A model generated the notes under the pieces. It was not told the DNA's origin. It saw only the letters and a list, made by a program, of their open reading frames with translations, and did no database searches. A stretch of 64,000 nucleotides of DNA from an uncultured Prevotella sp. (GTDB lineage Bacteria > Bacteroidota > Bacteroidia > Bacteroidales > Bacteroidaceae): the NCBI GenBank assembly GCA_946534285.1, contig CAMNCJ010000007.1, positions 23,219-87,218 on the forward strand, in the 5' to 3' direction. Below, piece by piece: positions 12,846-60,090 of this stretch; the first letter of the stretch is position 1; each line of letters opens with the position of its first letter. The translations under genes and the position numbers were made by a program.

Positions 12846-13000
12846 CCCTGTGCTCTCTGTGGTATGGTAACATGCATTCATATATTTTTGTTTTAACCAC
12901 CGAGAACACCGAGTTCACAGAGTTTTTATTATTATTATAATATTTCTCTGTGTCCTCTGTGCACTCTGTGGTTGTTAATTTGTATATTTATTATTCATCT
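12846..13000. repeat. Palindromic 9-nt-period repeat (CACAGAGnn/CTCGGTGnn); inverted copy of 15709-15861
   Basis: AACCACCGAG-AACACCGAG-TTCACAGAG, AT-rich loop, CTCTGTGTC-CTCTGTGCA-CTCTGTGGTT. Confidence 0.9.
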
Positions 13001-13059: not shown

Positions 13060-13480
13060 AAACGACATGCTGACGATTTGAAAAATTGCGACAAAAGCCT
13101 GTTCACATTTTCATTCAAAATAGAAATGGTTTTTGGGCGAAACGAGCATTGAAAACGAGAAAATGTAAAGAATCACTACCATGAGGCACATTTCTTCACG
13201 CAAAACCTATGCTTTTACATCTCAAAAGATATGGTTTTACCCTTCAAAAACTATGGTTTCACTGCCCAAAAACTATGGTTTTGCGACACAAAACCTATGC
13301 TTTTTTCAGCAGTAATGTGATTTCTTCGTTCAAGGGGAAACCGTTTTCATTGTAATCAATTATTAGTCAACAACTTGCAGGAAGTGCTTCAAAACTCGTG
13401 TATTTCGCCCCAGTTGCACGTTTGTCATCAGCACCGCCCGTATGAGAGGCTTTCATTCGGATTTTTCATGACAATATCAT
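13060..13480 (+). repeat. Dispersed ~420-bp non-coding element, copy 1, containing five 22-bp direct repeats (13201-13306)
   Basis: Colinear with the reverse complement of 59650-60071 (AAACGACATGCTGA...GAAAATGTAAAGA...CAAAACCTATGCTTTT...TGATTTCTTCGTT...CGTATGAGAG...ATGACAAT). Confidence 0.88.
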
Positions 13481-14908: not shown

Positions 14909-15718
14909 ATGAAGAATATTGTCATTGCAGCAGGCTATGCCACCCGCTTGGGAGAACTGACAAAGAACTTTCCCAAGCCGCTACTCAGAATCGGCAACAC
15001 CACCATCCTCGACCGTTTGCTTGATGACGTGGATGGTATCGACTCGATTGACGAACATGTGATTGTGACAAACCATAAGTTTGCTCCGATCTTTGAAAAA
15101 TGGGCAGAGGAAAGGAAATGTGCCAAAAAGCCCATCCGCATCATTGACGACGGAACAACATCGAACGAGACACGACTCGGAGCCGTGCGCGACTTGCTGC
15201 TCGCCATCACGGGGGATCCTGACGGAAACACATCTGCCGAACTGGAATATGAGGATATCATGGTGCTGGCGGCTGATAACATCCTGAATTTCTCACTACA
15301 GGGATTTGTTGACTATGCAGAGGAAAAACAATCATCTGTGATTATGTGTCACCATGAGCCGGAACTAAAGAAACTACAACGCACAGGGGTTATCGCCGTA
15401 GATGAGAATATGAGGGTGACAGAGATGCAGGAGAAACCAGAAAAGCCTGTGAGCCACTGGGCTGTGCCGCCTTTCTATATCTACAAAAAGAAAGATCTGC
15501 CACTGATTGCTGACTGTATGAACCACGGATGCGGATTCGATGCTCCGGGAAACCTGGCACATTACCTCGTGGGAAAAACAACGATTCATGCATGGGAAAT
15601 GCCTGGTACGCGATTCGACATCGGATCACTGGACAGTTACCGCGAGGCACAACGAGTTTATGGTGGTGAATTGTGTTTTCCAAACCACAGTGTGCACTTA
15701 GAACATGGAGATGAATAA
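14909..15718 (+). CDS. Sugar-1-phosphate nucleotidyltransferase (NTP_transferase)
   Basis: AAGYATRL..LTKNFPKPLL, EKP, RFDIGSLDSY; the ATG at 14909 is preferred over the track start. Confidence 0.9.
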   Translation: MKNIVIAAGYATRLGELTKNFPKPLLRIGNTTILDRLLDDVDGIDSIDEHVIVTNHKFAPIFEKWAEERKCAKKPIRIIDDGTTSNETRLGAVRDLLLAITGDPDGNTSAELEYEDIMVLAADNILNFSLQGFVDYAEEKQSSVIMCHHEPELKKLQRTGVIAVDENMRVTEMQEKPEKPVSHWAVPPFYIYKKKDLPLIADCMNHGCGFDAPGNLAHYLVGKTTIHAWEMPGTRFDIGSLDSYREAQRVYGGELCFPNHSVHLEHGDE

Positions 15719-15971
15719 TAAATATACAAATTAACAACCACAGAGAGCACAGAGGACACAGAGAATAATTAAATAAAAACTCGGTGATCTCCGTGTACTC
15801 GGTGGTTAGAATAAAACAATGTAGGACATGAATCTATGTTAATACCACAGAGTGCACGGAGGACACAGAGATAGATTTAATACGGAATGATAGGACCACG
15901 CGGGTGGATAAAGACAAAAAACTCGGTGTCCTCGGTGGTTAATAATAAAATAACTCCGTGGACTCGGTGGT
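15709..15971. repeat. Cluster of 9-nt-period palindromic repeats upstream of the GxxExxY gene
   Basis: ACCACAGAG-AGCACAGAG-GACACAGAG...CTCGGTGAT-CTCCGTGTA-CTCGGTGGTT; further arms at 15844-15870 and 15922-15971. Confidence 0.9.
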
Positions 15972-15988
15972 AAAAAAACAGATATGAT

Positions 15989-16354
15989 ATGAATGAGGAT
16001 CAAGAGACATATAATATAATAGGTGCGGCGATTGAGGTACATCGACAACTTGGACCGGGGTTTGTCGAGTTCGTCTACGCTGACGCATTAGAAATAGAGT
16101 TGAAACTGCGTGGAATTCCCTTCCAAAGAGAAGTAAGAATCCCTGTTGAATACAAAGGAAGCACACTGAAGCATGTTTATGTTGCTGACTTCATTTGTTA
16201 TGAACATGTTATCGTTGAGTTAAAAGCGGTGGAGAAAATTCTACCCGTACACGAAGCACAAATCATCAACTACCTGAAAGCGACGAACTATCACTGCGGT
16301 TTACTATTGAATTTCAGTGATATTGTTCTGCAAAAACGAAGATACGTTAACTGA
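15989..16354 (+). CDS. GxxExxY protein (PD-(D/E)XK nuclease fold)
   Basis: IIGAAIEVHRQLGPGFVEFVY (GxxExxY), ADFIC...VIVELKAV, HEAQIINYLKAT. Confidence 0.93.
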   Translation: MNEDQETYNIIGAAIEVHRQLGPGFVEFVYADALEIELKLRGIPFQREVRIPVEYKGSTLKHVYVADFICYEHVIVELKAVEKILPVHEAQIINYLKATNYHCGLLLNFSDIVLQKRRYVN

Positions 16355-16435
16355 GAAAAACGTTTTCTGAAAAACAACAGAGCGTAAAGATTAATCCAAA
16401 ATGGCTTCTGTAGTTGAGAAAGAACAAGTATTCAA

Positions 16436-16647
16436 ACAACCACAGAGAGCACGGAGATAGGGAATAATAAGAGGTATAGAAAACTGGGGGCAGATGAATA
16501 ATAAATTCTCGGTGAACTCGGTGATCTCGGTGATCTCGGTGATCTCGGTGATCTCGGTGGTTAATAATAAATAACTCCGTGGGGGATGAATAAAAATCTC
16601 GGTGATCTCGGTGATCTCGGTGGTTAATAATAAATAACTCTGTGGTT
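16436..16647. repeat. 9-nt tandem/palindromic repeats downstream of the GxxExxY gene
   Basis: CTCGGTGAT-type units x6 (16508-16561) and x3 (16598-16624); left arm CCACAGAGAGCACGGAG at 16440. Confidence 0.92.
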
Positions 16648-16681
16648 AGAAAATAAATTGAATAAATAGAGAAGTACAATT

Positions 16682-17722
16682 ATGAAAATCTTAGTTACTG
16701 GCGCAGCCGGATTCATCGGCTCGAAACTTATGTACATGCTCGCCCTTCGTGGTGATGATGTGGTAGGCATTGACAATATCAATGACTACTACAATCCTTT
16801 GCTCAAGTATGGCAGGTTGGCGGAGTGCGGTATAGAACAGAAAGACAACCATTTTGAATGGAATGTTCCTGTTCAGAGCAGTCTGTTTGCCAACTGCCGC
16901 TTTGTGAGAATGGCTATCGATGACAAGGAGTCACTCGACCGCTTATTTGAAAAAGAGCATTTCGACAAGGTGGTGAACCTCGCTGCACAGGCTGGTGTGC
17001 GCTATAGCATCACCAACCCTTACAGTTACTTACAAAGCAACTTGGTCGGGTTCCTCAACATTCTGGAAGCCTGCAGGAACAACCAGATTCGTCATCTGAT
17101 CTACGCCTCGTCGAGTTCTGTCTATGGCATGAATACCAAGGTGCCCTACAGTGAAGCAGACAAGGTGGACTCCCCCGTCAGCCTCTATGCCGCATCGAAA
17201 AAGAGCAACGAACTGATGGCGCATGCCTACTCGAAACTTTACGGATTCGCAACAACAGGACTGCGTTTCTTCACCGTCTATGGTCCATGGGGCCGTCCAG
17301 ACATGTCTCCCATGCTTTTTGCCTCCGCCATTTCCAAGGGAGAACCAATCAAAGTATTCAATCACGGAGACATGATTCGTGACTTCACCTATATCGATGA
17401 CATTGCTGAGGGTACGATTCATGTAATTGATCATCAGCCCGTTGCTGAAGAATGTCCCAACAACGTTCCTTACAAGGTGTATAATATCGGCTGTTCGAAT
17501 CCTGTAAAACTGATGGATTTTATCAGCGAGATAGAACAGGCTTATGGCAAGGAAGCCGAAAAAGTGTTTCTCCCCATGCAGCCGGGGGATGTTTATCAGA
17601 CCAATGCGAATACGGAACGTCTGGAAGAAGAGTGCGGTTACAAGCCACATTGGTCGCTGCATGACGGTATCCAGGAGTTTATGAAGTGGTATAAGAGCGA
17701 CAAAAACCCGCTCCGCCCATAG
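16682..17722 (+). CDS. NAD-dependent epimerase, UDP-glucuronate 4-epimerase family (Uge/Cap1J/WbnF-like)
   Basis: GAAGFIG, LAAQAGVRYS, YAASKKSNELMAH, RFFTVYGPWGRPDM, QPGDV. Confidence 0.9.
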   Translation: MKILVTGAAGFIGSKLMYMLALRGDDVVGIDNINDYYNPLLKYGRLAECGIEQKDNHFEWNVPVQSSLFANCRFVRMAIDDKESLDRLFEKEHFDKVVNLAAQAGVRYSITNPYSYLQSNLVGFLNILEACRNNQIRHLIYASSSSVYGMNTKVPYSEADKVDSPVSLYAASKKSNELMAHAYSKLYGFATTGLRFFTVYGPWGRPDMSPMLFASAISKGEPIKVFNHGDMIRDFTYIDDIAEGTIHVIDHQPVAEECPNNVPYKVYNIGCSNPVKLMDFISEIEQAYGKEAEKVFLPMQPGDVYQTNANTERLEEECGYKPHWSLHDGIQEFMKWYKSDKNPLRP

Positions 17723-59287: not shown

Positions 59288-59318
59288 CAAAGATACGAAT
59301 AAGCGAGAGAAATACAAA
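59288..59318 (-). promoter_or_regulatory. Promoter for the Wzy operon, formed by repeat unit 1
   Basis: Minus strand TTTG (59315-59318), 19-bp spacer, TATCTTTG (59288-59295). Confidence 0.6.
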
Positions 59319-59520
59319 ATAAAAAACATTTTTTTATTTTAATTTCCGAGCGAGAGTATCTTATTTAAAGATACGAATAAGTGAGAACAAAACAAAGGAA
59401 AACATCGTTTTTCTTTGATTTGTCGAGCGAAAGTATCTTATTTAAAGGTACGAATAAGTGAGAGAAATACAAAATAAAAATCATTTTTATTTCAAATTTC
59501 AGAGCGAGAGTATCATATTT
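59289..59520. repeat. Tandem array of three 77-78-bp hairpin-containing units; a degenerate fourth unit lies at ~60092-60150
   Basis: Units start at 59289, 59367 and 59444 with AAAGRTACGAATAAGYGAGA...GAGCGARAGTATCWTATTT. Confidence 0.9.
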
Positions 59521-59521
59521 A

Positions 59522-60090
59522 AAACGTGAATTCATCGCAAGACTTCTGCTATTTGCTTCCCCTTGTCGATGATATCAATATGCACTGACGGTTTCTCTGG
59601 CAGCAGATCCATATACGATGAAAAGCGCGGAAACGCGCTACTCTTGTGTATGAAATTGTCATAGAAAATCCGAGTTTGGGGCTCTCATACGAGCGACATT
59701 GGGCACAAACGATTAATTGGGCGAGAAATACGCGAGTTTCAAGATAATTCCTGCAATTCGCTGACAGACAATTAATTACACCGAAAACAGAATTTTCTAT
59801 AACGAAGAAATCAGATGTCTGCTGAAAAAAGCATAGGTTTTGGGTTGTAAAAACATAGGTTTTGAGGGGCGAAACCATAGTTTTTGGACAGTGAAACCTA
59901 TATTTTTGAAAGGTAAAAGCATAGGTTTTGCGCGTCGTAACATGTGTCACGGTAATGAATCTTTACATTTTCAAGTTTCCAACGCCCACTATTTCAAAAA
60001 TCGATTTCTATTTCGAAGGAAAACAGCAACATGATTTTGTCGTGTTTTTTCAAATCATCAGCATGTCGTTTCGCCGAACTCACATTATCA
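59522..60090 (-). mobile_element. MITE-like non-coding insert with imperfect terminal inverted repeats; core 59650-60071 is copy 2 of the 420-bp element
   Basis: Left end AAACGTGAATTC, right end (reverse complement) AATGTGAGTTCGG; sits at a junction of the 78-bp array; five 22-bp repeats at 59825-59930. Confidence 0.45.

Follow-up and report, generated by a model that had tools for sequence, protein, structure and literature searches.

Why does a gene for a very small nuclease stand between arrays of palindromic repeats among sugar-nucleotide genes, and how did gene and repeats come to lie there together? The question is raised by a stretch of 64,000 nt (hereafter the window) from the genome of an uncultured rumen Prevotellaceae (3.3 Mb in 57 contigs, 49% G+C; assembly GCA_946534285.1, contig CAMNCJ010000007.1, positions 23,219 to 87,218). 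At 15671-16637 of the window an insert with a GxxExxY gene and many copies of a 9-nt unit lies between a transferase gene and an epimerase gene. The insert is a member of a large and apparently undescribed class of chromosomal cassettes in which a GxxExxY gene is placed between inverted, phased 9-nt arrays. The leading, though still tentative, reading of this class is that of a selfish cassette of nuclease and repeats which spreads by site-faithful, homing-like exchange.

The repeats of the insert form three imperfect hairpins and additional one-sided arrays, all built from 9-nt units: CACRGAG plus two variable bases on one arm (A units) and CTCBGTG plus two variable bases on the opposite arm (B units). 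In window coordinates, the insert, its parts and the related gene-free copy are:

15671-16637, no strand assigned: whole insert, arms and gene, about 0.96 kb, with limits taken from a conspecific empty allele and a sister species.

15671-15735, plus strand: left junction piece specific to the window strain, which gives the upstream transferase its last 15 codons and stop codon (15716-15718).

15736-15808, plus strand: hairpin 1, three CACAGAG units, an AT-rich loop and three CTCBGTG units (-12.9 kcal/mol).

15842-15972, plus strand: hairpin 2, three A units (15846-15870) against two plus two B units (15922-15937, 15954-15969), holding the first copy of a 30-nt block.

15989-16354, plus strand: GxxExxY gene, 121 aa, minimal PD-(D/E)XK nuclease fold (TIGR04256, 148.9 bits, cut-off 35; PF13366 PDDEXK_3, 144.5 bits, cut-off 22).

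16437-16561, plus strand: hairpin 3, two A units (16441-16456) against six B units (16508-16559), from Tandem Repeats Finder and a unit search.

16533-16657, plus strand: two copies of a 63-nt super-repeat consisting of three B units, an AT spacer, one B unit and a spacer (Tandem Repeats Finder score 206).

16638-16647, plus strand: terminal unit CTCTGTGGTT, the perfect complement of AACCACAGAG at 15736-15745, read directly.

12894-13000, minus strand: gene-free hairpin copy of about 107 nt, an inverted copy of 15709-15808 (87% identical over 107 nt).

Tandem Repeats Finder places 9-nt arrays at 15739-15765 (3.0 copies), 16507-16559 (5.9 copies, 95% matches) and 16596-16622 (3.0 copies, 100% matches). 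Single-strand folding compared with shuffled sequences gave z-scores of -4.7 for 15735-15810, -5.4 for 15842-15975, -2.9 for 16437-16565 and -7.2 for the gene-free copy, and in the folded hairpins, including the gene-free one, a mismatch is found inside nearly every unit. The 30-nt block CTCGGTGGTTAATAATAAA(A)TAACTCYGTGG occurs exactly three times (15931, 16553, 16616), while none was expected from 100 shuffles. The sequence between transferase and epimerase is mostly non-coding, with 15989-16354 as its single open reading frame (ORF). An earlier note on this DNA had described the GxxExxY gene between CACAGAG/CTCGGTG-type hairpins, arms of varying copy number with up to six units near 16508, the block in triplicate and a gene-free copy. 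All of these observations hold, with the correction that the gene is placed between complete hairpins and not inside the loop of one.

AACCACAGAG and CTCTGTGGTT bracket the insert as a perfect 10-bp inverted repeat, comparable to the terminal inverted repeats of a transposon or miniature inverted-repeat transposable element. The unit at the CTCTGTGGTT position is the sole one retained in the empty allele. Both insert ends are AT-rich (ATAA...ATAAC); as a candidate target-site duplication they match imperfectly, and the same sequence is also present within an internal spacer.

Judging from family scores, the catalytic set and a confident model, the gene is predicted to code for an intact enzyme of the Cas4/lambda-exonuclease fold. 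Among 37 homologues from many phyla, residues H18, E27, Y30, D67, E77, K79 and Q91 are invariant, and Y95 is found in at least 90%. The GxxExxY motif (G24-E27-Y30) and the D...ExK and QxxxY catalytic motifs are all present. The AlphaFold2 model has a pLDDT (predicted local distance difference test) of 96.3, and its top Foldseek match is Cas4 SSO0001 (4ic1; E = 1.8e-4, template modeling score 0.61). The next solved folds near the model are lambda exonuclease, RecE and MGME1, with I-Bth0305I also in the fold list. The PD-(D/E)XK fold named in the earlier note is in agreement with this match and with the motifs. With only two cysteines (C70, C103) the protein lacks the four-cysteine Fe-S cluster of Cas4, and its neighbours are sugar-nucleotide genes and not cas genes. 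PF13366 was the sole family matched; the protein is neither an HUH Y1 (IS200/IS605-like) transposase nor a GIY-YIG nuclease (cd10448).

The family is large, with 18,416 representatives at 50% identity (E <=0.001). Many members (P0121-P0129 and others) consist of two GxxExxY domains fused in tandem, with lengths of 250-295 aa, which hints at a dimeric working unit. Searches of solved structures by sequence gave no match to the GxxExxY protein, and neither did the PADLOC-DB models of known and candidate defence systems. In 50,697 phage records there were zero homologues. Eight plasmid records contain one; none of these plasmids is smaller than 20 kb, five exceed 500 kb, and none is predicted to be mobilizable. 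In a 2012 survey of PD-(D/E)XK proteins, the function of GxxExxY is listed as unknown (PMC3424549).

The association of gene and arms extends far beyond the window. From other species of the genus 130 GxxExxY loci were gathered, of which 120 could be scored for an upstream/downstream inverted repeat, with the threshold set at the 99th percentile of controls shifted by 1.3 kb. Inverted arms surround the gene at 99 of the 120 genus loci and, in a set of 75 drawn from about twenty phyla, at 32, while among controls the figure is about 1%; the enrichment of repeats across taxa that the earlier note anticipated is therefore present. The predominant period is 9 nt across loci. Units vary by cassette (CACGGAT, CACAGAT, CGCAGAT, CACGAAT, CACAGAG and others) around a common core YRC-N-R-A, and unit sequence roughly follows protein clade. 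Arms can be better conserved than the gene: between L037 and L021 they are 96.6% identical over 29 nt and the genes 66%. The orientation of the innermost arm relative to the gene is merely biased (23 vs 9), for which reason a strict gene-in-loop rule was rejected.

The triple-unit pattern CACNGA-N3 x3 was detected in 64 of 151 genus genomes, while the reversed control pattern was almost without matches. Such arrays are found in 45 of 81 genomes with a GxxExxY gene and in 19 of 70 without (odds ratio 3.4, Fisher p = 5e-4). In genomes with several GxxExxY copies, each copy has distinct arms. Seven of ten array-positive, GxxExxY-negative genomes possess genes of the four-helix-bundle family TIGR02436. 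Three TIGR02436 loci read by eye (L297 in G166, L295 in G036, L293 in G054) have inverted tandem units as well (GTTGAAT, GGTAAAA, TTAAGGAG), but since these measure 7-8 nt, the 9-nt arrays are not explained by TIGR02436 genes. A period that changes with the cargo protein (9 vs 7-8 nt) indirectly favours contact between protein and arms.

Numbers of repeat loci differ widely from genome to genome. The window genome has a single GxxExxY gene, no TIGR02436 gene was found in it, and arrays of at least two units occur at just four places in its 3.3 Mb: two in the window, and one sequence present on both contigs C8 and C22. Four loci do not make a population like that of REPINs (doublets of repetitive extragenic palindromic, REP, sequences that form hairpins), the elements to which the earlier note compared the repeats. 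In genome G132, about eight gene-free hairpins, short in the loop, share their arm sequence with the one armed gene; their unit, CACGGATTA, differs from those of the window cassette. This is the picture of an autonomous element with non-autonomous copies which the earlier note had drawn. The gene-free copies in the window and in G132 agree with it, but the 19 gene-less congeners that still have arrays do not. Near-identical 24-mers are dispersed in G174 and G183, and some congeners hold dozens of dispersed copies.

Several other repeat arrangements were encountered among these genomes. A hairpin of ~110 nt with three CACGGATCT arms and a CTCC-TTCG-GGAG tetraloop stem in its loop is found at L088:987-1098, at L083:994-1107 and in three copies in L018. 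The loop is near-identical in three species (G036, G166, G148), the arm 24-mer recurs in at least four others, some of them without GxxExxY, and there was no Rfam match to the hairpin; candidate identities are a structured RNA and a non-autonomous element spread by horizontal transfer. In L081 (G187:C5:38000-44250), six one-sided CACAGATAACACAGATGGCACAGA arms in one orientation are scattered through a run of small unrelated genes, which adjoins an ORF judged UpxY-like by eye. The layout is like a cassette array, and G187 is without GxxExxY. In L087 (G002:C22:2700-4300), one GxxExxY gene stands amid about fourteen hairpin modules that recur every ~100 nt, an extreme form of the local hairpin amplification also present 3' of the window's gene.

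Comparison between species shows that a cassette can differ in history from its surroundings. The 130 loci were grouped into 19 shared sites, which gave 115 same-site pairs. Divergence was read from third-position identity, counted over codons whose amino acids agree. On this scale the cassette gene falls short of its flanks by more than 0.15 in 67 of the 115 pairs and exceeds them by more than 0.15 in 2 (L011/L012, 0.85 vs 0.47; L038/L274, 0.90 vs 0.60), and the two values hardly correlate (rho = 0.18). In identity profiles the flanks are 90-98% identical to within 100-200 nt of the start codon, and again from 150-350 nt past the stop. Arms and gene form a sharply bounded divergent island between species, with borders at the outer edges of the arms. 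Within the species of the window the GxxExxY gene has 0-5 differences in 366 nt, against 0.6-2.5% in the flanks. Hypermutation is an unlikely source of the divergence, as the gene changes no faster than its flanks within the species, and the excess divergence therefore reflects replacement or exchange.

On the protein tree, site labels require 22 changes, where the least possible number is 18 and shuffled labels need 47.9 on average. All eleven kor-site genes form one clade, whereas a few sites have two or more origins (gmd-fcl, an isomerase-kinase site and two others). A kor-site cassette (L157) is present in the cultured Xylanibacter ruminicola KHT3. Approximately unbiased (AU) tests were applied at one site, kor, and there the cassette and the flanking genes conflict in their history: the cassette data reject the flank-defined clade (p = 5.8e-8), and the flank proteins reject the cassette-defined clade (p = 2.4e-7 and 6.3e-12). 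In keeping to one site, moving between genomes and now and then being lost, the lineages follow the pattern of homing elements. The dispersal like that of REP-associated tyrosine transposases (RAYTs) proposed in the earlier note does not suit lineages that keep to one chromosomal site, and homing-like or flank-mediated exchange fits better.

Occasional loss was observed directly. About twenty conspecific contigs from metagenome assemblies were retrieved through exact lookups of the epimerase and GxxExxY proteins. In at least one of them (L049) the transferase is followed by the epimerase 47 nt on, and the cassette is missing. Apart from one 891-bp indel, L049 and the occupied L047, from a run with a neighbouring accession number, are separated by 2 substitutions over 1,036 nt of left flank and none over 1,050 nt of right flank; four changes lie no more than 20 nt from the junction. 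Because the two are nearly identical and the more distant conspecific haplotypes are all occupied, with cassette genes diverging in step with the flanks, the empty allele represents a recent loss. It is a secondary deletion and not a naive site. The empty-site alleles foreseen in the earlier note were accordingly found in one sense, as a cassette-free allele exists, but one unit remains in it and its haplotype is of the occupied type. The cassette is dispensable, and whether passed on, exchanged or lost, its gene and arms go together as one unit.

In the closest other species (L062, transferase 86% identical) the transferase-epimerase spacer is 46 nt long and has no units; this spacer and the 47 nt of the conspecific contig bear out the claim that the insert interrupts a run of genes. 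At least two other species have solo arms at the equivalent site. A search for the empty-junction pattern in Joint Genome Institute metagenome contigs gave 0 matches, and a comparison of the cassette DNA with 100 related species returned no conserved match. No transposition was seen in the alleles and genomes compared.

Among occupied alleles, hairpin 3 has 3 to 7 units and the 63-nt super-repeat is present in 1 to at least 5 copies. The left junction varies too: other strains have ATAAAAAAATAAC in place of 15671-15735. The unit arrays are unstable, expanding and contracting between strains. The neighbouring genes are:

14909-15718, plus strand: upstream flank, sugar-1-phosphate nucleotidyltransferase (NTP-transferase) with a tail that enters the insert, from homology calls and orthologue comparison.

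16682-17722, plus strand: downstream flank, NAD-dependent epimerase, from a homology call.

Without the cassette the transferase is called as a product of 274 aa; with it the product has 275, 287 or 290 aa, depending on how the reading frame enters the insert; NTP-transferase orthologues terminate near ...YG(GE). The epimerase protein is identical between occupied and empty alleles. The insert alters the C-terminal tail of the transferase and parts it from the epimerase.

The gene-free hairpin at 12894-13000 was found in every conspecific contig covering that region. Its outer part is closely related to the left junction: 12944-13000, once reverse-complemented, agrees with 15709-15765 in 56 of 57 nt. 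This points to gene conversion among hairpin copies, from which the left junction of the window strain would derive. A role of the gene-free hairpin as a capsule recombination junction was considered and dropped, as the break between the strain-variable and conserved parts of the capsule locus lies at ~12213 and not at the hairpin. To the left of ~12213 conspecific strains differ in their capsule genes (AlaDh-like/cytidylyltransferase vs MurJ/Wzy), while the right side is 95-98% identical.

Arrays of a different kind, four to five 22-nt units with a palindromic AAACCATAGGTTT core, are found at 13201-13304 and 59827-59930 of the window, at C8:89000-89150 and at C22:54690-54830. Those at 13201, on C8 and on C22 adjoin gene-free CACAGAG-type hairpins 5' of polysaccharide genes, and they may be a regulatory or promoter module common to capsule loci. 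A 77-nt tandem repeat was also reported by Tandem Repeats Finder at 59289-59523 of the window (3.0 copies, 75% matches).

A homing-like cycle can be proposed from these observations. The nuclease, as a dimer or larger assembly, would bind its own arms at their phased units. A nick or cut made there or close by, or in an unoccupied homologous site, would produce recombinogenic ends, and host recombination would then copy arms and gene into the same site of related DNA, by gene conversion and not by transposition. The same process might duplicate hairpin modules locally and shed gene-free copies. Loss could occur via slippage between the short AT-rich direct repeats at the arm bases. The element would in this case be a selfish passenger in a capsule-sugar operon.

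A number of points weigh against the homing-like reading. Hydrolytic PD-(D/E)XK enzymes are not known to carry out strand transfer, and site-faithful exchange could proceed by ordinary homologous recombination through conserved flanks, for which the nuclease is not needed. No cassette gain event was seen among the alleles compared. At four other sites (kor in two species, araA-kinase, MatE-phosphoesterase), each followed in a single species, all conspecific contigs are occupied; one apparent empty site in these checks proved to be an uncalled gene beside a run of Ns. The deletion in L049 ends in ATAA microhomology, as passive slippage would give, and one retained unit together with this microhomology is what slippage across a fold-back predicts. 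The 19 congeners without GxxExxY have intact triple-unit arrays. The most abundant hairpin family of G174, with 68 copies, flanks none of its four GxxExxY genes, and for this genome the idea that repeats are propagated by the resident enzyme is not supported. The groups compared in the AU tests were chosen after trees and data had been inspected. In the species of the window, most copies and every strain examined show a systematic mismatch between the two arm types at their central base (CACAGAG vs CACCGAG). This mismatch is explained by neither simple pairing nor one binding specificity, and it fits no model.

The main rival is that the arms act at the RNA level or are recognised by a host factor, with passive recombination through the flanks. 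The arms would pair and loop out or insulate the ORF, or would be processed like the intervening sequences of 23S rRNA; the flanking genes would stay expressed, the nuclease would have an unrelated role, and exchange would be passive. Such a function would suit the compact cassettes (L039, L025, L038, L085), which abut their arms on the start and stop codons of the neighbours and of the GxxExxY gene, as well as the widely shared gene-free hairpin with a UUCG-type tetraloop stem in its loop. The persistence of arrays in GxxExxY-less genomes and the biased orientation of units relative to the gene also agree with it, and site-faithful lineages are what flank-mediated recombination predicts. However, the helices are weak here, where besides the mismatches within units the spacers are non-complementary. 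Period and core are conserved though pairing alone would permit any sequence, and the period varies with the cargo family. No Rfam family was matched at gathering score in the window, and at ten related loci the matches were sub-threshold only, nine of them to microRNA-hairpin look-alikes. The high flank identity also continues right to the arms, without the hitch-hiking tracts of ordinary recombination. On balance this explanation is unlikely.

A second rival, improbable on the present evidence, is a role like that of Ssn. The protein would be a sequence-specific single-stranded DNA nuclease which targets arrays of units and modulates transformation or recombination of unit-bearing DNA, and the gene would not itself be mobile. 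There is a precedent in ssnA, with repeats on both sides and a specificity that depends on the homologue (PMC11893778). Its relatives Cas4, lambda exonuclease and MGME1 have single strands or DNA ends as substrates, and some congeners have the dozens of dispersed copies that could serve as targets. In the window genome, however, there would be just four target loci, and each gene copy has a separate arm type instead of one genome-wide motif. This role also does not predict the turnover of cassettes or their site-faithful lineages.

It is very improbable that the gene is a host-beneficial one under diversifying selection, such as a restriction-like or self-recognition nuclease, with an island made by allelic replacement and arms that are by-products of break repair. 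Cassette genes far more diverged than flanks at the same site, sharp borders and several copies per genome with different arms would be expected of such a gene. Against it, no PADLOC-DB defence model was matched, the cassettes are located within housekeeping operons and not in defence islands, the arms are organised and conserved in a way that scars are not, and one strain does without the cassette.

Least probable of all is transposition of the REPIN/RAYT kind, in which the nuclease is the transposase of an autonomous element spreading hairpin doublets to new sites: the terminal inverted repeats, the armed and gene-free hairpins with identical arms in G132, the copy at 12894-13000 and the dispersed 24-mers of G174 and G183 speak for it, but the enzyme is hydrolytic and without HUH or DDE chemistry, the candidate target-site duplication is imperfect, the window genome has four loci, lineages are site-faithful, the dispersed families of G174 are without a cognate gene, and the gene is absent from the phage records and rare on plasmids.

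The homing-like reading can be widened into a more doubtful claim, that GxxExxY cassettes are pan-prokaryotic minimal site-faithful homing cassettes whose ~120-aa nuclease reads co-evolving 9-nt units and drives gene conversion, with TIGR02436 cassettes as a parallel class. Should the nuclease read its arms, much of the phased palindromic repeat content of Bacteroidota intergenic spacers would be accounted for, and the family would provide a set of tiny nucleases with a specificity readable from their flanks. For genome annotation, cassettes matter in that they change the ends of neighbouring genes, here the transferase tail, and assembly gaps and structural differences between strains are concentrated at them. 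Full-text literature searches returned no description of GxxExxY genes with phased repeats. The within-species loss allele and the site-faithful horizontal exchange backed by tree tests are new here.

Among known systems, free-standing homing endonuclease genes and their homing cycle were reportedly treated by Goddard and Burt in 1999, and I-Ssp6803I is a homing enzyme of the PD-(D/E)XK type. Like homing endonuclease genes, GxxExxY cassettes have site-bound lineages, exchange incongruent with host genes, sharp borders and occasional loss. Homing genes have no phased repeat arms and are mostly found in phages, introns and inteins, whereas the cassettes are armed and no phage copies were found; cutting of an unoccupied site would be a further parallel. 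The ORF-bearing intervening sequences of 23S rRNA and the TIGR02436 cassettes share the arrangement of a small ORF between inverted arms. The cargo of TIGR02436 cassettes is, however, not a nuclease and their units are 7-8 nt long, in contrast to the nuclease-fold cargo and 9-nt units of the window cassette, which is located in an mRNA operon and not in rRNA. With Cas4, lambda exonuclease, RecE and MGME1 the protein shares the PD-(D/E)XK core and the D...ExK and QxxxY motifs, but it is half their size and has no Fe-S cysteines and no CRISPR or recombination-operon context.

REP/REPIN elements with RAYT transposases were reportedly described by Nunvar in 2010 and by Bertels and Rainey in 2011. 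As in the REP/REPIN-RAYT system, one enzyme gene is bracketed by inverted palindromic repeats, with gene-free doublets elsewhere (Di Nocera et al. 2013, PMC3733652). RAYT is, in contrast, an HUH Y1 transposase, and REPs have a GTAG tag and number in the hundreds, while GxxExxY cassettes are site-faithful, with four loci here. In the Ssn system with its NTS/SRM repeats, as in the cassettes, a small single-domain nuclease gene has its own short hairpin-forming repeat on both sides, and the repeat is also found gene-free. In Ssn, 42% of ssnA homologues have repeats on both sides and cleavage specificity differs between homologues (Chenal et al. 2025, PMC11893778); here the unit differs from cassette to cassette. 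Ssn is a GIY-YIG enzyme with one compact hairpin in hundreds of copies, unlike the PD-(D/E)XK protein with inverted 9-nt arrays and few copies in this genome. Activity on its repeats has been demonstrated for Ssn and is hypothetical for GxxExxY. If the nuclease does read its arms, this would be a third partnership of nuclease and repeat, after RAYT/REP and Ssn/NTS.

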